Source of the DNA: Acidimicrobiia bacterium
GTDB lineage: Bacteria > Actinomycetota > Acidimicrobiia > IMCC26256 > JANYLB01
Assembly (NCBI GenBank): GCA_035646535.1
Contig: DASRPD010000098.1
Span: 33,827 to 97,826 of the forward strand
DNA: 64,000 nucleotides
Direction: 5' to 3'
A model generated the notes under the pieces. The model was not told where the DNA came from, did no database searches, and saw only the letters and a list, made by a program, of their open reading frames with translations. Of this stretch, positions 10,616-29,747 are shown one piece after another; position 1 is the stretch's first letter, and each line of letters opens with the position of its first letter. The position numbers and the translations under genes are program-made.

Positions 10616-10960
10616 CTAACCGGGAAGGTCGAGGAGCACGGCGATCGCCTCACGAAGCTGTGCGACCACGGCGGGCCCAACGTTCCCGCGCGTCGCGGCG
10701 ATACGGCTCGGGGACACGGCTCGAAGGTGTTGGCATTGCGCGGCGGAGGTCTCCTGCAGCCCGTTCGCGGTATCGGGATCGATCACGATCTCTGAGCCGA
10801 ACGGCCGGATCGTGGATGTGAGTGGAACGACATGGACGACCGAGGGGGTGGCGTCGAGGACGCGCTGAGCCGTCACCAAGACCGCGGGGTGGAGAAACCC
10901 AGCCTCCCGTCCCTCGGGGACCCCCAGCTCGAGATCGACGACGTCACCCGAGGTCGGCAT
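10616..10960 (-). CDS. mazF: PemK/MazF-family type II toxin (endoribonuclease)
   Basis: 114-aa ORF with GDVVDLELGVPEGREAGFLHPAVLVTAQ...VVPLTST..., the SH3-like PemK signature. It overlaps the upstream antitoxin ORF by 17 nt. Confidence 0.8.
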   Translation of the reverse strand: MPTSGDVVDLELGVPEGREAGFLHPAVLVTAQRVLDATPSVVHVVPLTSTIRPFGSEIVIDPDTANGLQETSAAQCQHLRAVSPSRIAATRGNVGPAVVAQLREAIAVLLDLPG

Positions 10961-21797: not shown

Positions 21798-22202
21798 ATG
21801 GCGGACGTGGAACGGGGGAACAGGCTCGTGACGGTCGTGATCGAGGTCGCCGACCTGGACAGGTCGGCGCAGCTGTATCGCGATGGCTTCGGGGTGGATC
21901 TTCACCTCGCGGATCACGGTGGTGCTGGCCATGGTGAGGACGATCGTTGGGTCAGCGGCCGTCATGCGGCGACGTCGTGGAAGGAAAGATCGTTTCTCCA
22001 CTTCGCGCTCTACCAGTCGAAGGGAGCACCGACATCGGGCGCCCAGCTGAGCTTCGGAGTTGACGACATCGCCGCAGCACATCGTGTAGCGATCGATGCC
22101 GGAGCGGTGGTCGTCCATGAGCCGCGGCGAGAGCCATGGGGCACGAGCGCGCGCTACCGGGACTACGACGGCAACGTGGTGGAACTGACTCAGCCTGGGT
22201 GA
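21798..22202 (+). CDS. VOC (glyoxalase/bleomycin-resistance) family protein
   Basis: Start at MADVERGNRLVTVVIEVADLDRSAQLYRDGFGV (ATG 21798). The C-terminus ARYRDYDGNVVELTQ fits VOC. Confidence 0.75.
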   Translation: MADVERGNRLVTVVIEVADLDRSAQLYRDGFGVDLHLADHGGAGHGEDDRWVSGRHAATSWKERSFLHFALYQSKGAPTSGAQLSFGVDDIAAAHRVAIDAGAVVVHEPRREPWGTSARYRDYDGNVVELTQPG

Positions 22203-22216
22203 GCGACAATGGCGTG

Positions 22217-22546
22217 ATGGCGTCGCTTCTTGTCATCTCTGGCCCGCCCGGCGCGGGCAGCTCGACGGTCGCGCGTGCTCTCGCTGAGAGGATCGAACCG
22301 AGCGTGCTCGTTGACGGCGACGCGTTCTTCGCGTTTGTCGCTCGCGGCGCGGTGTCACCGTGGCTTGCCGAGGCTCGCGACCAGAACGAGGTCGTCACTC
22401 GCGCCGCGGCGTCCGCCGCGGCGTGAGTGACGATCGACGAACGGCACGTGCTCATCGATCCGCCCGATGAAGTCGATGCTGTCGCGGATCGGATCTTGGC
22501 GGCGGTCGACCGCGAGACGCTGGTGTATCGCAGCCGTTCGTCGTGA
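22217..22546 (+). pseudogene. P-loop kinase/AAA-type ATPase gene with an in-frame TGA and apparent internal deletion
   Basis: MASLLVISGPPGAGSSTVARALAERI (Walker A) ...VLVDGDAFF..., then TGA at 22424-22426. The same frame continues VTIDERHVLIDPPDEVDAVADRILAAVDRETLVYRS* to 22546. The total is only 110 codons, so the core (lid/Walker B region) is missing. Confidence 0.55.
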
Positions 22547-22641: not shown

Positions 22642-25613
22642 TCAGCGACCGTCGCCGGTCAACACGGCGATCTGCTGCTCGACGAAGTTGACGATCTCAC
22701 TGTCCTTCATGGATGCACCCTGGCGTACTGCGTCGGCGAAGGCGGCCGGTCCCAGCAGCGATCGCAATTGATCGACGCTGTCGGAGAGCCGCTCGGCGTC
22801 AGCTGGTTCGAATGGCAGCGCGTGTGATGCACCGACCGCGGTGAGCGACCCGTGCAGGACGGCCGCGGCCTCGAATGCTCCGAGGTCGACGAGGATCCCG
22901 AGCACTCGACGCAACGACAGCCATTGGTTGGCCCAGTCGCCACCTCGGTACCACGTGTCGACGACGTCGGCGTAGCCGATCAGCGCGGTCATGTGCTCAC
23001 CGTGTTTCGCCCTGAGCCAGTGGACCTCGGTGAGGGCGAAGGCTTCGATCCAACGGTTGCCGGCCTCGGCGGCCACCAGACTGGCTCGCTCGAGGTACGA
23101 GAGCGCCTCGCTCGGGTCGGTGCGCTCGAGAGCAAGTCCGAGGGCGTAATCGGCCTGGGCATGCGCAGTTGGTGACTGGGCTGCGTCCGCCGCGGCCCTG
23201 GCCTCGCGGGCGAGCACGGCGCCGCGGCTCCCAGCTCCGACGCTGGTCTCGGCCACGGATCGCATGTACAGGCCGTGAGCGATTCGAGCCGTGGAGCCGG
23301 ATCGCCGGGCCGAGTCCAGCATCCGATCCATCCAGGCCAACCCTTCGTCGACCCGTTCCATGTAGAAGAACGTGTTGCCCAGGACCCGCTCGGGGAGACC
23401 ACTGTCGGACGTCTCGGTCTTGCCCTCGGCCTCGAGGGCTTGGTGGGCGAGGCTGATTGCTGCCTCCATGTCGCCCCGTACGAAACGGCCGTAGGCCGAC
23501 ACAGCCAGCGCGACCGGCCGATCAGGGTGGTCGCTGGCGCCAGGGAGACGTGCCGACGCGTCGGCCCAACTCGCGACCTCGTACTGGACGCGCCTGAACG
23601 CGAACTCCCACAGTGAAGCGACGAGTCGCAGCGCGCTGTGGGCGTCATCCCGGCGGAGCGCGGTGAGGTGCGCCGCCCGGAGGTTGTCGAAGTCCCGATC
23701 GAGTGCGACCGACCACGACGGCTCATCGGGGCTGTCCAGGCCGGCAGCCCCGCGTTCTGCCAGGTCGAGGAACCAGCTGAGGTGACGATCCTCGACGTCC
23801 TCGAGGATCCCGCGCTCAGCCAGACGATCGAGACCGAACTCGCGCAACGGCTCAAGAAGACGGTACCGAGGCGGACCCGGATCGACGAGCACGACCATTG
23901 ACTTGTCGACGAGGCCGGCGAGTGTGCCAACCGTGGGCGAGTCCTGCGGTCCAATCAGACAGACTGCCTCGGCCGCCGGTAGGTCGAAGCCTCCCGCGAA
24001 GACCGCCAACTGCTCGAAGACCTTCTGCTCCTGAGGTTCGAGGAGGTCGTGGGACCACTCGACGAGGTGGTGAAGCGTGCGTTGACGTCCATCGGCACCG
24101 CGCTGGGTCTGGCCGAGCAACTCGATCCGCTGGTGCAGACGTGCCGCGAGCGTGTCGATACCCATGCTTCGTACCCTGGCCGCCGCAAGCTCCAGGGCCA
24201 GGGGGAGGCCGTCGAGTCGGCGGCAGATCTCGGCGACGACCGCGGCGTTGTCGTCGGTCAGCGTGAACCCGCGGGTTGCGGCGTCGGCGCGGGACGCGAA
24301 GAGCTCCACCGCGGCCGAGCTTCGAATCTCGCCGGCCAGCACGGCATCCGAGGTCGGCAACGACAGCGGGGCGAGGACCTCGACGTACTCCCCGGCCAGG
24401 CCGAGAGGCTCCCTGCTCGTGGCGAGGATCCTGAGTCGGGGACACGACGAGCGGAGACGGTCGACGAGGGGGCGAGGGTGTCGGTGACGTGTTCACAGTT
24501 GTCGAGCACCAGCATGCAGTTCGTCGAGGCGAGGTGCTCCTCGATCGTGGACTCGATGGTCCGGTACTGACGCTGTTGGATGTCGAGGGCGTGCGCGATG
24601 ACCTGCGCGGCTCCCGACGGGTCCCGGAGCGGTGCGAACTCGACCACTGTCACACCATCGTCGAACGCATCCATGACGCCGCCGGCGACGCGCATGGCCA
24701 GCCTGGTCTTGCCGACCCCTCCGGGCCCGGTCACCGTCATCAGCGGCTGATCCCGGAGGGCTTCGGACAGGGCGAGCACATCAGGATCGCGACCGATGAA
24801 CGAGGTCGCCCCCATCAGCTGGGGGACGAGAATGCTCGCGGCTCGAAGTTTGGTGGACGGCTCGCCCGTGGAGTGAAGAGAGGGGTCGTCAGCCAGGATT
24901 CTCACCTCGAGCTCGCGCACCGCCGGCGACAGATCGAGGCCCAGCTCCTGTCCGAGCATCTCGCGGAGCTTGCCGACCCGACGGAGTGCCTCACCCTGTC
25001 GGCCCGTGCGGTACAGGGCCAAGATCAGCAGGCGCCAGTAGCACTCCCGAAGCGGGTGGAGACTCACCAGTGCTTCGAGCTCACCCACCATCGGCGCAGG
25101 ATCGCCGGTTGCCATCCTGGCGTCGGCCCACTGATCGGTTGCCACCAGCCGGAGCTCGTCGAGACGCACCGCCTCGCCGTGCACCTCGGCGAGGTCCGCG
25201 TACTGTCCGAAGGCTGGTCCGTGCCACAGGGCGAGCGCTGACTCGAGCACCGGAACGGACTCGTGAGCACCGAGGGTGTGGCCTCGGGCGAGCAGTGCCT
25301 CGAAGCGGTCCGCGTCGAGTCCGCCGTCGGGCGTGTCCAGCCGATAGCCGGCGGAATCGAGCGTGATCGAGAATCCCGGAGGGAGCGCCGCTCGGAGGCG
25401 CGAGACCTGACTCTGTACCGTCGCCTTCGCCGACTTCGGCGGCCCCTCACCCCACAGCGTCTCGATCAGCCGATCAGAAGACACCGGATTGTGCCGGTGC
25501 GCGATGAGGACCGACAGCAGTTGCTGCGCCTTCGGCCCACCGAGTGGGCGCGGCGCACCCTCAGCCCACAGCACGAGCCCCCCGAGCACTCGCAGCTCCG
25601 TGGGTCCCGTCAT
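22642..25613 (-). pseudogene. AfsR/SARP-type regulator (OmpR-like wHTH + BTAD + NB-ARC P-loop + TPR), split by a frameshift at a G5/C5 run
   Basis: The N-terminal ORF starts at MTGPTELRVLGG (ATG 25613). It reads ..LIETLWGEGPPKSAKATVQSQVSRLR.. (wHTH), BTAD, then GPGGVGKTRLA...LVLDNCEHVTDTLAP and turns to nonsense. The homology continues in the frame one base off: LVDRLRSSCPRLRILATSREPLGLAGE..., which is the 572-aa ORF 22642-24360 with TPR repeats. The junction is at GGGGG 24468-24472. Confidence 0.8.
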
Positions 25614-25635
25614 CGGCTCAGCCTCCCGCGCTGTC

Positions 25636-25694
25636 TGCTTGCAGTCCGCTTGCAATTGGCCGCCGGCTTCGCACGCGCATTGCGAGCCATTTGC
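25636..25694 (+). promoter_or_regulatory. phased direct heptamer repeats (SARP-box-like) in the divergent intergenic region
   Basis: GCTTGCA lies at 25636-25642 and 25647-25653, an 11-bp phase. ATTGCGA (25678-25684) and ATTTGCA (25688-25694) have TTGC cores 11 bp apart. A degenerate GCTTCGCA lies at 25665-25672. Confidence 0.5.
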
Positions 25695-25776
25695 AGGGTG
25701 GGTCCTTCATCATCGCCTCACTGATGGCTCGTCAGCGAGCCACAGTCGCTCACCGACAACAACGGAGGTCCGAGCC

Positions 25777-26373
25777 ATGACGTGGAAGCTGTCCGGAAGC
25801 TACTTCGAGTCCTGCAACTGCGAGGCGGCGTGCCCGTGCGCGTTCCTTGGTCCGCCGACGACGGGGGTGTGCACTGCGATCATCGGATGGCACATCGAAA
25901 ACGGTGAGTACGAGGGACTGCAGCTCGACGGGCTCAACGTGGCCTTGGCTGTGGACTCGCCGGGGCACATGGCCACGACCGAGTGGCGGGCGGCCGTGTA
26001 CCTCGACGATCGGGCCTCCGAGGAGCAGACAGCCGCGCTCGGCGCCATCTTCTCCGGCGCTGCCGGGGGACACCCGGCCGTCCTGGGCTCCTACATCGGC
26101 GAGGTACTGGGCGTCGCCACCGCACCGATCACCTTCGAAGGTGACGACGCGTCGCGGGCGATGCGGATCGGCGACGTGGCTGACGTGAAGATCACCGCGA
26201 TGGAAGGCCAGGGCGGAGCCCAGGTCACGATCGCCAATCACCCCTTGGCAGTTGCTCCCGGCCAAGAGGTGGTCGCGGCTCGGGCAGATCACCTCCGGTT
26301 CACCGATCACGGCTACGAATGGGAGCTGTCGGAGAGCAACGGCTTCTTCTCGCCCTTCAAGTACGAGGGATGA
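25777..26373 (+). CDS. DUF1326-family protein
   Basis: Start at MTWKLSGSYFESCNCEAACPCAF (ATG 25777, ACGGAGG SD at 25762-25768). The Cys-rich N-terminal CNC..ACPC motif is characteristic of DUF1326. Confidence 0.75.
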   Translation: MTWKLSGSYFESCNCEAACPCAFLGPPTTGVCTAIIGWHIENGEYEGLQLDGLNVALAVDSPGHMATTEWRAAVYLDDRASEEQTAALGAIFSGAAGGHPAVLGSYIGEVLGVATAPITFEGDDASRAMRIGDVADVKITAMEGQGGAQVTIANHPLAVAPGQEVVAARADHLRFTDHGYEWELSESNGFFSPFKYEG

Positions 26374-26374
26374 G

Positions 26375-27142
26375 ATGAGAGCGTTGCTCGCACCCCCGAC
26401 TGCGAGGACTCGGCTGTTCGTGGCCGCGGGTCTCGTGTTCGTCGTCGTGCTGTCCTGGGCCTACCTCATCTTCCTCAGCGCCCGCATGGGCGACATGCAG
26501 TCGCCGTTTGCCATGCCGATGACCTCTGCCTGGACGGGTCAGGACGTCGTGCTCATGTGGACGATGTGGGCGGTGATGATGGCCGGGATGATGCTCCCGT
26601 CGGCGGCACCGATGATCGGCGCCTATGCGACGACCGTCCGATCGGACACCCCCGGGCTTCACGGCTCCACCGCATTGTTCGTGGCCGGCTACCTCGCTGC
26701 CTGGAGCGGCTTCGCCGCGCTGGCGACCGGCGCCCAGTGGGTGCTGCACGACGCCGCACTCGTCAATGCCATGGGGGTCTCCACGAGCAGTTGGCTCGGC
26801 GGCCTGCTGTTGCTGGCGGCGGGTGCCTACCAGTTCACGAGGGTCAAAGATGCGTGTCTTCGGCAGTGCCGGACGCCCCTTGGATTCCTCCTCAACGAGT
26901 GGCGCGATGGCCAACGTGGCGCGGTCGTCATGGGTGTGCGCCACGGGGCGGTCTGCGTCGGGTGCTGCTGGGCACTGATGACGCTCTTGTTCGTGCTCGG
27001 CGTCATGAACCTGTGGTGGATCGCGCTCGTGGCCGCGGTGGTCCTGCTCGAGAAGATCCTTCCGAGTCGGGCGATCAGCCACGCGCTCGGAGCCTCGTTG
27101 ATGGTCTGGGGCGCTGCGCTCGTGATGGGGCTCGGCTCATGA
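26375..27142 (+). CDS. DUF2182-family predicted metal-binding integral membrane protein
   Basis: ATG 26375 lies 1 nt after the DUF1326 stop. It has multiple TM helices, Met-rich segments (MWTMWAVMMAGMMLPSAAPM) and a CVGCCW motif. Confidence 0.75.
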   Translation: MRALLAPPTARTRLFVAAGLVFVVVLSWAYLIFLSARMGDMQSPFAMPMTSAWTGQDVVLMWTMWAVMMAGMMLPSAAPMIGAYATTVRSDTPGLHGSTALFVAGYLAAWSGFAALATGAQWVLHDAALVNAMGVSTSSWLGGLLLLAAGAYQFTRVKDACLRQCRTPLGFLLNEWRDGQRGAVVMGVRHGAVCVGCCWALMTLLFVLGVMNLWWIALVAAVVLLEKILPSRAISHALGASLMVWGAALVMGLGS

Positions 27143-27293: not shown

Positions 27294-28187
27294 TCAGGTC
27301 GGCGGTGGGTCCTCACGGTGGAGCCAATCCAACAAGTCCGTCGGAGCCAGATGCTCGGCGCGTGCCTGGTAGTCGGCGAGCTCGCGCTCGGAGAGCACCT
27401 CTCGGGCAGCGCCGGACGAACCGCGGCGAAAGAACCGCGCGGGGGACTTGAGGACTCCTGCGGCGTCGGGGGCCAACTGGTCGGCACGAGCTCGCATCCG
27501 CTCGAAGCGCGCCGCGCGCACGAGATCGGGCCACCTCGCCTCGTCGACATGGATGTGGAGCAGTCTCGCGAGGCGGCGCATCTGGCCTTCGAGATCAGCC
27601 GACAGATCGTCGTAGTGCACGAGAACGATGTTCGGCTGGTCGCGACGGGCCCACGCGTCGGACAGGTGCCACAGCACTCCAGCAAGGGAGTCCATCTGCT
27701 CGCGCGGGCTTCCCTGCCAGTTGATCCACGCAACCAGCCACTCGCGAAGCGGCGGCCGAGCGGACGCCGGCGATGGGGGTCGGTCCCGGCCGGTGAGCTC
27801 GCGCATCCGCTCGCGATCGAGGTTGTCGCCCTGGTGGTACAGCGACACTGCCATGTCCAACGGGTGGCGCGCCACCACGATGTAGGTGGCGCGCGGGTCC
27901 AGCGGCACACCGTCGAGCGGCGTGTGGGTCTTCACGAACCGCCGGTGCCCCTGCGCGTCGAGGTGAGCCAAGACGTCGTCGCGTGGAGCCCCGAGCCAGT
28001 CCAACCACGGGGAGAGCTCGGCCAACGGCGCGGGCAGGTCCTCGGTCTGGAACACCAACAGCGCGCAGATCATCTGCACCCAGGTCGTGCCGCTCTTGGA
28101 CCGCGTGCTGATCACGATGTCGCCCGGCCGGAACGAGAACCCCGCCCACCGAGCACTGTCCTCGTCCGCGGAGCGGTATCGGGACAT
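27294..28187 (-). CDS. PAPS-dependent sulfotransferase-domain protein
   Basis: 297-aa ORF. ISTRSKSGTTWVQ is the 5'-PSB loop, and VVARHPLDMAVS is 3'-PB-like. Confidence 0.8.
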   Translation of the reverse strand: MSRYRSADEDSARWAGFSFRPGDIVISTRSKSGTTWVQMICALLVFQTEDLPAPLAELSPWLDWLGAPRDDVLAHLDAQGHRRFVKTHTPLDGVPLDPRATYIVVARHPLDMAVSLYHQGDNLDRERMRELTGRDRPPSPASARPPLREWLVAWINWQGSPREQMDSLAGVLWHLSDAWARRDQPNIVLVHYDDLSADLEGQMRRLARLLHIHVDEARWPDLVRAARFERMRARADQLAPDAAGVLKSPARFFRRGSSGAAREVLSERELADYQARAEHLAPTDLLDWLHREDPPPT

Positions 28188-28205
28188 CGCCCGACCGTGT
28201 CTCTA

Positions 28206-28577
28206 CTACTCGGGGTTGTGGCAGACGACCTCGACGTTGTTGCCGTCGGGATCACGGACGAACGCGCCGAAATAGTTGGGGTGGTACTCGGGCCAGACTC
28301 GCGGTTCGTGCAGCACATCAGCGCCGGCGCTCACGGCGGCGTCGAAGGACGCGTGGACCGCTCCCCGGTCGCCGGCCGTGAGCGCGATGTGGGACTCACG
28401 GAACCCCTCACCGCTTGCCCGCGGGCCGATCCAGAAGTCCGGCATCGGCGCGACACCGAAGCCGATGACCTCACCGAAGTCCATGACGCGCGTTCCGCCG
28501 ATCGGCGCAAGAAATGCGTCGTAGAACGCGGCACTCGCCGCCACATCGGCGCACTGAATCGAGACATGATCGAGCAT
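28206..28577 (-). CDS. VOC/glyoxalase family protein
   Basis: 123-aa ORF with MLDHVSIQCADVAASAAFYDAFL... and FVRDPDGNNVEVVCH. Confidence 0.85.
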   Translation of the reverse strand: MLDHVSIQCADVAASAAFYDAFLAPIGGTRVMDFGEVIGFGVAPMPDFWIGPRASGEGFRESHIALTAGDRGAVHASFDAAVSAGADVLHEPRVWPEYHPNYFGAFVRDPDGNNVEVVCHNPE

Positions 28578-28688
28578 GGCGAAACCCTATCCGCCGCCGA
28601 TTCATCTCCTTTGGCGTCGTAGGGCATGGATAATTCATGGCCTGCGACGCCAAAGCGATGGTTCGGTACGTCCGAGCCCGACGCGGGA

Positions 28689-29747
28689 CTACCGGGACGG
28701 GTCGACCGCTTGGAGCGCGCCGCCCGCGGCGGCCGAGGCGCGCATGGCATCGAGGACGCGCATACCGGCGACGCCGTCGGTGAACGTGGCGGGCGCGACC
28801 GGGCCCGGTTCGCCGCCGTCGATCGCGGTGTAGAACGCACGGGCCAGCGCGGTGTACGGCTCGAGCTCCATCGCCATCCACCGGTGCTCCGAGTCGGCGT
28901 CGGCCTCGACTGGTGTTGCGGTGACGAGCTCGTGTTCGCCGGTCGCGTCGGCGAGCACGACCCGGTCACCCTTGACGACGATGGTTCCCTCGGTTCCGGT
29001 CACGCTTGTCAGGCCTACGACGTTCGGCGTCCACGCGGCGGCGCACTGCTGCAACACGCCCTCGGCGCCGTTCACCGTCGTGAGTCGGGCGACGAAGGAG
29101 TCCTCGACGCCTCGGTCGAGCGCGGACACCGTCGGCAGGGTCGCGCTGACGCTCTCGATCTCGCCGAGCCAGGTGCGGAGTTGATCCACGGCGTGTGATC
29201 CGGACGCGCCGAGCCAGCCGCCACCCGCGGCCGCGTCGTACCACCAGTCGGCGAACAGCTCCGTCGGACCGGAGAGCAGATTGATCGAGCTGACCACGGT
29301 GAAGGTTCGTGGTTCGCCGATGCGGCCTTCGCCGATCACCCGGGCCACCGCCGACTGCGCCGCGGCGAAGCGGAACTCGTGGCCGACCAGATGGACGACC
29401 CCGGCGCGCTCGGCCGCCACGAGCATCGACGATGCCTCGGTGGCGTCGATGGCGAAGGGCTTCTCGCACAGCACGTGACGGCCCGCCGCGATCGCCTGGA
29501 GCGCGAGTGGCGCATGGGTCGCGGGTGGGGTGGCGATGCTCACGGCGTCGATACCCGGGAGTGCGAGCGCGTCTGCCAGCGTCGTGCACGGGTGGCCGAC
29601 CTCGGCGCGTGCCGCCCGTCGAGCCGTCTTGTCGGTGTCGCGTCCGATCAGCGCGCGCACCTCGAAGCCCGCGGCTCGGAGCGCGGGCACGTGGACGCGA
29701 CGCCCGAAGCCGGTGCCGACGACCGCGACCCCCGGAGGCCGGCTCAT
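28689..29747 (-). CDS. Gfo/Idh/MocA-family NAD(P)-dependent oxidoreductase
   Basis: 352-aa ORF. VAVVGTGFGRRVHVPAL is the Rossmann motif and HVLCEKPFA is the EKP motif. Confidence 0.85.
   Translation of the reverse strand: MSRPPGVAVVGTGFGRRVHVPALRAAGFEVRALIGRDTDKTARRAARAEVGHPCTTLADALALPGIDAVSIATPPATHAPLALQAIAAGRHVLCEKPFAIDATEASSMLVAAERAGVVHLVGHEFRFAAAQSAVARVIGEGRIGEPRTFTVVSSINLLSGPTELFADWWYDAAAGGGWLGASGSHAVDQLRTWLGEIESVSATLPTVSALDRGVEDSFVARLTTVNGAEGVLQQCAAAWTPNVVGLTSVTGTEGTIVVKGDRVVLADATGEHELVTATPVEADADSEHRWMAMELEPYTALARAFYTAIDGGEPGPVAPATFTDGVAGMRVLDAMRASAAAGGALQAVDPSR

Follow-up and report, generated by a model that had tools for sequence, protein, structure and literature searches.

Two divergent arrays of 11-nt boxes lie between sarp and the DUF1326-DUF2182 operon

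In the DNA analysed here, a window of 64 kb from contig DASRPD010000098.1 of an Acidimicrobiia bacterium, the gene of a large SARP family regulator (below called sarp) and a two-gene DUF1326-DUF2182 operon are divergently oriented and separated by a spacer of 163 bp. A first-pass annotation of the window had reported 11-bp-phased heptamer direct repeats in this spacer and had proposed that the regulator acts through them on the operon and possibly on its own gene. The repeats are present: two copies of the heptamer GCTTGCA, the sole ones on the plus strand of the window, are located at 25637 and 25648 with a spacing of 11 bp, and ATTGCGA and ATTTGCA follow at 25679 and 25689, respectively. The corresponding TTGC cores, at 25639, 25650, 25680 and 25691, reproduce the reported spacings of 11, 30 and 11 bp, with every coordinate having been given 1 nt too low. 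The flanking genes are also those that had been named, since Pfam assigned Trans_reg_C and BTAD (plus a P-loop NTPase) on the minus strand and DUF1326-DUF2182 on the plus strand. Comparison with orthologous loci led to the following list of features, in which the boxes facing sarp are called U1 and U2 and the boxes facing the operon D1 to D3 (all coordinates are positions in the window):

25614 to 25776: spacer between the divergent genes, 163 bp, with the ATG of sarp at 25613 (minus strand) and the start of DUF1326 at 25777 (plus strand)
25669 to 25679, plus strand: box D1, TCGCACGCGCA, distal, in an 11-nt register with D2 and D3 in 17 of 17 loci
25680 to 25690, plus strand: box D2, TTGCGAGCCAT, containing ATTGCGA, identified by ortholog comparison
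25691 to 25701, plus strand: box D3, TTGCAGGGTGG, promoter-proximal, containing ATTTGCA, with T, G and C invariant in an alignment of 8 sequences
25708 to 25713, plus strand: -10-like hexamer CATCAT of the DUF1326 operon, conserved in position, with a predicted transcription start at about 25720
25645 to 25655, minus strand: box U1, TTGCAAGCGGA, distal, containing the second GCTTGCA, assigned by minus-strand matrix score
25634 to 25644, minus strand: box U2, CTGCAAGCAGA, promoter-proximal, containing the first GCTTGCA, assigned by minus-strand matrix score
25620 to 25625, minus strand: -10-like hexamer GAGGCT of the predicted sarp promoter, 6 nt ahead of the ATG
25777 to 26373, plus strand: DUF1326 gene, first gene of the operon, Pfam PF07040 at 2e-54
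26375 to 27142, plus strand: gene of a DUF2182/PpoB2-family membrane protein, second gene of the operon, Pfam PF09948 at 7e-67

The orthologous spacers were collected in two ways. A scan of GTDB species representatives with a DUF1326 protein yielded 80 loci, seven of which (L004, L006, L009, L015, L016, L017 and L020) carry a divergent SARP gene whose product is 56-71% identical in the N-terminal domain, and nine further loci (L081-L089) came from metagenomes, which were scanned with aligned SARP N-terminal domains. The resulting set comprises 16 non-redundant spacers, or 17 with the window. Across the orthologous loci, the SARP N-terminal domains are 54-72% identical and the spacers otherwise about 58% identical; the start codons of the regulators align in the window and seven orthologues, and the spacers are therefore well delimited. 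In the orthologous intergenic regions, whose alignment the first-pass annotation had proposed as a check, the repeats are retained, in the form of three phased plus-strand units in 17 of 17 spacers. The layout on this strand is the same throughout, namely D1-D2-D3, a gap of exactly 6 nt and a -10-like hexamer, so that the first base of D3 lies exactly 17 nt from the hexamer in every locus. A motif-free count of the distances between TGC trinucleotides in the 16 spacers gave 31 pairs at 11, two at 10, none at 12 and 16 at 22. When the D triplets were scored with the respective locus left out, they reached 17-32 bits, compared to a maximum of at most 18 bits among 1000 shuffles, and in none of the 17 loci did any of the 1000 shuffles attain the observed score.

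The 51 units of the 17 loci give the 11-nt consensus yTGCAnGCGnn. G3 is present in 50, C4 and G7 in 46 each and T2 in 41 of the 51 boxes, position 2 never being G, and the information content along the unit is 0.6, 1.3, 1.9, 1.5, 0.8, 0.2, 1.5, 0.4, 0.6, 0.3 and 0.0 bits; the first 8-9 nt are thus conserved and the last 2-3 free. The hexamer conforms to nAnnAT in 16 of 17 loci, mostly as CAyGAT (L085 has GAAGCT), with A2 and A5-T6 invariant in the 8-sequence alignment, and its distance to the DUF1326 start codon ranges from 39 to 73 nt across the 17 loci. This layout modifies the earlier description in two respects. The distance of 30 bp, about three helical turns, between the two reported pairs holds, but the pairs are not equivalent, the real arrangement being two plus three boxes on opposite strands. 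Moreover, ATTGCGA and ATTTGCA do lie in boxes D2 and D3, but the third box D1 (TCGCACG at 25669) had been overlooked.

A tandem-box matrix built without the window was then used to score both strands of the 64 kb. The three best tandem matches are all located in this spacer: the U pair with 24.3 bits, D1-D2 with 15.7 bits and D2-D3 with 15.1 bits. No other tandem site of at least 15 bits at spacing 11 was found in the 64 kb, and other spacings gave 0-1 such pairs. The next tandem match, with 13.9 bits, lies at 10770 on the minus strand, and no further members of a regulon were detected within the window.

The upstream doublet faces sarp

Since the core TGCA of the boxes is palindromic, the orientation of the upstream pair was tested separately, using a matrix derived from plus-strand triplets only and leaving out the locus to be scored. 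In the window, the pair scores 24.3 bits on the minus strand and 11.4 bits on the plus strand, and similar values (about 19-26 bits on the minus versus 5-15 bits on the plus strand) were obtained in 12 of the 17 loci, with a tie in L020. In L016, the 11-bp spacing of the pair exists on the minus strand only. A plus-strand reading of the GCTTGCA pair, which lacks the conserved G7 and scores lower, was rejected. Thus, the earlier view of the GCTTGCA pair as standing in plus-strand phase with the second pair did not hold; it is better read as TGCAAGC on the minus strand, belonging to the promoter of sarp.

In most orthologues, a gap of 6 nt separates the U1-U2 doublet from a hexamer such as GAGACT, GACACT or CACACT, and the sarp start codon comes another 6-7 nt later. 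A hexamer of the form gAsACT/GAGGCT at 6-7 nt ahead of the start codon is found in most orthologues and likewise in distant homologues, and in the 13 loci listed, the distance from the beginning of the doublet to the sarp start codon is 39-42 nt. Given the short distance between hexamer and ATG, transcription is predicted to start at the start codon itself, that is at the A of the ATG at 25613, and the sarp mRNA to be leaderless. The suggestion that the regulator might act on its own gene is in line with this arrangement, as the minus-strand doublet faces sarp with the same box-to-hexamer geometry in most loci. The stretch between the two divergent arrays measures 13-15 nt in 12 loci, and its sequence is not conserved; with its length kept, the five boxes form one unit of fixed geometry. 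The two -10-like hexamers are about 81 bp apart.

Based on this comparison, we consider it probable that the spacer consists of two back-to-back activator-dependent promoters, both under the control of the adjacent large SARP with its winged helix-turn-helix (wHTH) and BTAD domains, STAND NTPase and TPR-like region. In this model, SARP protomers would sit side by side on 11-nt direct-repeat boxes of the type yTGCAnGCGnn. Boxes D1-D3 (25669-25701), which end 6 nt ahead of the hexamer at 25708-25713, would replace the -35 element for the DUF1326-DUF2182 operon; with a start at about 25720, 7 nt past the hexamer, D2-D3 would span -40 to -19 and D1 -51 to -41. The U boxes (25655-25634, minus strand) would stand in the same way before the hexamer at 25625-25620, 6 nt from the sarp ATG, and the SARP would thereby activate its own gene from a leaderless mRNA in a positive autoregulation. 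Within this model, we infer that it is this SARP which binds, that it activates and does not repress, where transcription starts, and that the NTPase/TPR part senses a signal.

The regulator is a SARP family protein with a genuine frameshift

The regulator is encoded in two parts, for which the following features were recorded:

24258 to 25613, minus strand: N-terminal SARP open reading frame (ORF), 451 aa, with wHTH, BTAD and the start of the P-loop NTPase (Pfam), the Walker A region included
22642 to 24471, minus strand: C-terminal SARP part, with the rest of the NTPase/NOD and the TPR-like region, in a different frame from the N-terminal part
24468 to 24472, minus strand: frameshift site in a run of five C (GCC CCC TCG), at which the tblastn segments in frames -1 and -3 abut, confirmed by direct reading

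In the N-terminal part, Pfam detected Trans_reg_C (8.3e-10, residues 27-92), BTAD (1.8e-33, residues 99-240) and nSTAND1/AAA_22, and a phmmer search against the PDB returned EmbR (2FEZ, 2.3e-36) and AfsR (8HVR, 4.1e-33), with residues 3-249 covered. By these matches, the regulator is a SARP family protein. Its C-terminal part matches residues 382-986 of the L004 orthologue, an intact protein of 988 aa, with 75% identity over 605 aa; the downstream ORF had been listed as 22642 to 24360, 572 aa. The L004 protein aligns to AfsR over most of its length (residues 8-871 to AfsR residues 28-918), but reaches only 152.8 bits with the NCBIfam AfsR equivalog NF053617, compared to a cut-off of 1430, and is thus not an AfsR orthologue. 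One added base in the C run would restore the reading ...APLVDRLR... of the orthologues. All six orthologues with complete ORFs are intact (987-1001 aa), and the gene of the seventh, L015, extends beyond the end of its contig.

The same frameshift is found in three further assemblies, JGI 3300006792, ENA ERZ27294418 and Logan SRR5680860 (L161, L162 and L163), which encode an identical DUF1326 protein, differ from the window by 8, 4 and 0 single-nucleotide polymorphisms (SNPs) over 8.6 kb and yield split gene calls of 451 and 555 aa. An assembly error was rejected as an explanation, and we regard the frameshift as real, because four assemblies separated by few SNPs have it in common. For the C5 run, programmed -1 slippage seems unlikely, as there is no canonical slippery heptamer. 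The likely product is therefore a protein of 451 aa that keeps the complete wHTH-BTAD region. For AfsR, the isolated SARP domain was reported to activate better than the full-length protein, the NOD and TPR parts being inhibitory until ATP binds (PMC10936776). By analogy, the truncated SARP of the window may still activate, without signal control.

The frameshift is one of several observations that weigh against the proposed model of two SARP-activated promoters. The gap between U2 and the hexamer is 8 nt in the window versus 6 nt in most orthologues, and L004, L016, L017 and L087 have an upstream doublet that is degenerate or placed differently. The D pairs of the window are comparatively weak, with 15-16 bits, and D1 carries a C at position 2, where the consensus has T; several orthologues (L020 and L081-L084) have a degenerate D2. 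If the heptamer yTGCAnG is taken as the unit, its distance to the hexamer is 10 bp as opposed to the textbook 8 bp, and the match to AfsR is only obtained with 11-nt units. Finally, the whole model rests, for all members, on comparative sequence analysis.

Some of these observations would equally fit a circuit in decay, in which genuine SARP boxes persist as relics that no longer function, next to a regulator gene turned pseudogene. The real 1-nt frameshift in the C5 run of four assemblies, the gap of 8 nt instead of the conserved 6 nt between U2 and the hexamer and the position of the D-box scores of the window at the low end of the range speak for such a decay. Conversely, the 451-aa product retains a complete wHTH-BTAD region, which in the case of AfsR outperforms the full-length protein when isolated (PMC10936776), and the boxes remain the three best matches in the window. 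In addition, any inactivation would have to be recent, since the downstream frame of 572 codons is still open, with 75% identity to the orthologue. Taken together, we consider a decaying circuit unlikely.

The boxes occur together with one SARP clade

In order to link the boxes to the regulator, their occurrence was followed beyond the orthologous spacers. Within 0.9 Mb of collected loci, other tandem matches of at least 17 bits are found only directly upstream of homologous SARP genes, whose products are 41-50% identical and which carry yTGCAAG doublets next to different neighbours. In contrast to the 17 of 17 spacers beside the SARP clade, none of the 73 DUF1326 loci without this clade contains a match of at least 17 bits. 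Within the orthologous loci, synteny is restricted to sarp-DUF1326-DUF2182, the genes flanking this module in the window being absent from 15 of them, and neither a second regulator nor a conserved flanking gene was found there. The module of three genes seems to be mobile as a whole. The absent flanks of the window (21798-22420 and 27294-29747) encode two glyoxalase-type proteins, an AAA_17 protein, a sulfotransferase and a GFO/IDH/MocA oxidoreductase.

The doublets of the homologues are located at 672 in L091, 1981 in L097, 2388 in L102, 1858-1868 in L116, 2379-2389 in L118, 2356 in L130, 518 in L135 and about 2437 in L094-L096. Several of these loci show the order two boxes, 6 nt, -10-like hexamer, 6-7 nt and start codon, and some have an additional divergent array towards an uncharacterised gene.

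A second, distant SARP clade (about 34% identity) is encoded co-directionally upstream of DUF1326-DUF2182(-DUF1326) operons. Its loci (L024, L033, L041, L043, L044, L052, L054 and L055) contain three 11-bp-phased boxes of the type TTGAmn, about 60-130 nt upstream of the DUF1326 start. The recognition helix of this clade reads SLRTYxSNLR, as opposed to T[VL]Q[SAV]x[VIL]SRLR in the clade studied here and its distant relatives with yTGCAAG boxes, and the positions that differ include the equivalents of T88 and R92, which are base-contacting residues in AfsR (PMC10936776). We take the distant clade as a separate instance of SARP control over this type of operon, and the box sequence co-varies with the SARP recognition helix. 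The boxes themselves, their phasing, orientation and fixed distances and their exclusive co-occurrence with the SARP clade are shown by the loci studied. The regulator-target pair of SARP and DUF1326/DUF2182 that had been put forward initially is supported by the distribution of the boxes over the loci and by the co-variation of helix and box.

DUF1326 operons without a SARP gene have other repeats upstream. Two copies of GAACGC(T) about 11 bp apart are located about 40-70 nt upstream in L003, L010, L014 and L018, with a divergent MerR-like gene beside the operon in L014, and direct and inverted repeats of CGTTTGA/CGTGTGA are found in L008, L011, L012 and L013. These repeats precede TAnnnT-like hexamers. 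The different motifs suggest that other regulators control the same type of operon at these loci.

PhoP-, GlnR- and MtrA-type response regulators likewise use 11-bp-phased direct repeats. The boxes might therefore be bound by a different winged-helix protein, either of the OmpR/PhoB type or another SARP, with the adjacency of sarp being incidental, and the GAACGC repeats of some loci without a SARP could be taken in the same sense. We regard this as improbable: the boxes are present in all spacers beside the clade and in none of the loci without it, they recur ahead of homologous SARP genes with different neighbours, their sequence follows the SARP recognition helix, and no other regulator gene is syntenic.

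The predicted promoters resemble those of known SARP systems

In SARP targets, the repeats stand beside the -10 element at distances of 11 or 22 bp from each other (PMC10936776). The early proposal of SARP-type phased boxes near the -35 region is consistent with the fixed distance of 6 nt to the -10-like hexamer in 17 of 17 loci. A scan of the region with the sigma-70 consensus gave no site, and there is no canonical -35 element at 16-18 bp from the hexamer. A lone TTGCAx as -35 hexamer was rejected, the spacer to the -10-like hexamer being 11 or 22 bp. A scan of the region with a terminator consensus gave no match either.

The closest parallel is AfsR, for which cryo-EM structures are available (8HVR, 8K60 and 8JKE; PMC10936776). 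The afs box consists of two 11-bp repeats from -40 to -19, centred at -29.5, with contacts over the first 8 bp of each repeat, and the afsS promoter of S. coelicolor has poor -10 and -35 elements (PMC10936776). The intact orthologue of the regulator shares with AfsR the combination of a SARP domain, a STAND NTPase/NOD and a TPR-like region in about 990 aa. The predicted operon promoter shares the 11-bp direct repeats with about 8 specific and 3 free positions, the end of the box pair 6 bp ahead of the -10 element (-40 to -19, if transcription starts 7 nt past the hexamer), the weak -10 element and the lack of a usable -35 element. It differs from the AfsR system in the box sequence yTGCAnGCG, in the presence of three target boxes plus a predicted divergent autoregulatory doublet and in the target, which is the DUF1326-DUF2182 operon instead of afsS. 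Further differences are the origin from Acidimicrobiia-type and other Actinomycetota metagenome-assembled genomes as opposed to Streptomyces and, in the window, the uncoupling of the NOD/TPR part by the frameshift.

PimR, SanG and PolR are large SARPs with an NTPase domain as well, and their heptamers with 4-bp spacers add up to 11-bp units (PMC5930380, PMC3367932). PimR recognises the heptamer CGGCAAG in the form of one triplet and one doublet, with 4-bp spacers (PMC5930380); triplet plus doublet operators and a regulator that is often divergent from its target are thus common to these systems and the one described here. Their consensus CGGCAAG is not matched, since yTGCAAG shares GCAAG (5 of 7 positions), but has yT instead of CG at positions 1-2. 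Also, both PimR operators lie upstream of the pimM -35 element and face the same gene, with a doublet spacer of 3 bp, whereas the doublet found here is inverted, would serve the predicted leaderless promoter of the regulator itself, and the boxes overlap the -35 position. PimR targets genes of an antibiotic pathway, which DUF1326-DUF2182 are not. ActII-ORF4, DnrI and RedD bind direct heptamers one helical turn apart beside the -10 element, as activators replacing the -35 element (PMC10936776), but their heptamer is TCGAGXX, they lack an NTPase/TPR sensor part and they belong to antibiotic gene clusters. EmbR of Mycobacterium tuberculosis (2FEZ) is the best-scoring solved structure for the N-terminal domain and has a non-antibiotic target; it differs by its C-terminal FHA domain, its control by the kinase PknH and an operator with no defined array of two plus three boxes. 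In summary, the proposed mechanism is that of known SARPs; the system adds a new box consensus, target operon and lineage as well as a split regulator.

The location of the boxes would in principle also allow the SARP to repress or roadblock one or both promoters, as RNA polymerase could be occluded by a protein bound over the -35 and spacer regions, which the boxes overlap, and as the two promoters are so close (about 81 bp from -10 to -10) that the arrays could interfere with each other; alternatively, the repeats could be elements of an alternative sigma factor. Both variants are very improbable. Given the lack of a usable -35 element, with distances of 11 or 22 bp between TTGCAx and hexamer and no sigma-70-type site, the promoter should be inactive without an activator, the position of the boxes is identical to that in the activating complex of AfsR, centred at -29.5, and BTAD serves for activation in every characterised SARP (PMC10936776, PMC10972967).

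As for chance, the evidence from the single sequence is weak. Ten exact direct repeats of 7 nt or more recur at spacing 11 within the window, among them GGAAGCT, which lies about 150 bp off within the coding sequence of DUF1326 (25784-25801, plus strand) and illustrates that such pairs arise easily. Dinucleotide shuffling of the 163-bp spacer gave a probability of 0.013 for an exact 7-mer pair at spacing 11 and of 0.037 at spacings 10-12, values which would fail a correction for multiple testing because the first-pass annotation had scanned the whole window. The exact pair of the initial claim is near chance on its own, and the repeats are significant only by virtue of their conservation in the orthologous spacers. 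Coincidence in GC-rich DNA, for which the ten exact pairs, including the one at 25784, and the uncorrected shuffle probabilities of 0.013-0.037 could be cited, is refuted by the retention of position and phase in 16 other loci with otherwise about 58% identical spacers, by the failure of all 1000 shuffles to match the observed score in any locus and by the sharp peak of periodicity at 11 bp.

The target operon and its 5' region

The DUF2182 gene starts 1 nt past the stop codon of DUF1326 and adjoins DUF1326 in all related loci. The present Pfam name of PF09948 is PpoB2 'copper chaperone'; a search of NCBIfam assigned no family to either DUF1326 or DUF2182. Two further features lie between the predicted transcription start and DUF1326:

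25725 to 25742, plus strand: stem-loop TGGCTCG tcag CGAGCCA in the predicted 5' untranslated region, with 25725-25731 pairing with 25736-25742
25764 to 25768, plus strand: Shine-Dalgarno sequence GGAGG, 8 nt ahead of the DUF1326 ATG, by direct reading

The motif (A/G)GAGG ahead of DUF1326 is kept among the orthologues. In 14 orthologues, RNAalifold predicted a consensus helix of 9 bp for the stem-loop, in which G-U pairs as well as compensatory changes occur; 85.7% of the cells are paired, compared to at most 48% in slid controls, and the covariation score lies above 500 of 500 shuffles. A scan of 25300-26100 against Rfam at E<=1 returned only four sub-threshold chance matches (mir-H1 and snoRNAs), and the stem-loop was assigned to no family.

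PpoB2 of Marinomonas mediterranea, a DUF2182 protein, transfers copper to tyrosinase (PMC2855505). In Roseobacters, DmdEF (DUF2182/DUF1326) are needed for growth on dimethylsulfoniopropionate (DMSP), and purified DmdF has peroxidase activity; homologues from actinomycetes are set apart phylogenetically and have no linkage to DMSP genes (PMC12992908). DmdEF and PpoB2 resemble the operon described here in that they belong to the same two Pfam families, which are always adjacent, but they are found in Proteobacteria, under DmdR regulation or in a tyrosinase operon, with no SARP control described. Our search of the literature revealed no link between the DUF1326/DUF2182 families and a SARP, and a single paper of the library searched treats both families together. 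Because of the peroxidase activity of DmdF and the copper transfer by PpoB2, a role of DUF1326-DUF2182 in oxidative stress or in relation to metals, and a corresponding signal, is plausible.

Implications for SARP regulation in Actinomycetota

Since the mechanism is already understood, the advance is an incremental one. For two protein families with almost no literature, the analysis provides a precise and testable model, consisting of five boxes, two -10 elements, two predicted starts and a consensus. It extends SARP boxes whose geometry resembles that of AfsR beyond Streptomyces and antibiotic clusters to uncultured Actinomycetota, including those of Acidimicrobiia type, and the two SARP clades at the same kind of operon offer a natural example of co-variation between recognition helix and box.

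More tentatively, sarp-DUF1326-DUF2182 may represent a self-contained, mobile sensor-effector cassette of Actinomycetota, in which sensing by the NTPase/TPR part would lead to self-amplification of the SARP via its leaderless autoregulated promoter and to the switching on of the DUF genes, and in which the frameshift would have generated a sensor-less, possibly constitutive activator in the sampled population. We put this forward as a possibility with a somewhat less than even chance of being correct. If true, it would define the first regulon and input route for both DUF families in Gram-positive bacteria and would constitute a clear case of a SARP acting outside secondary metabolism.

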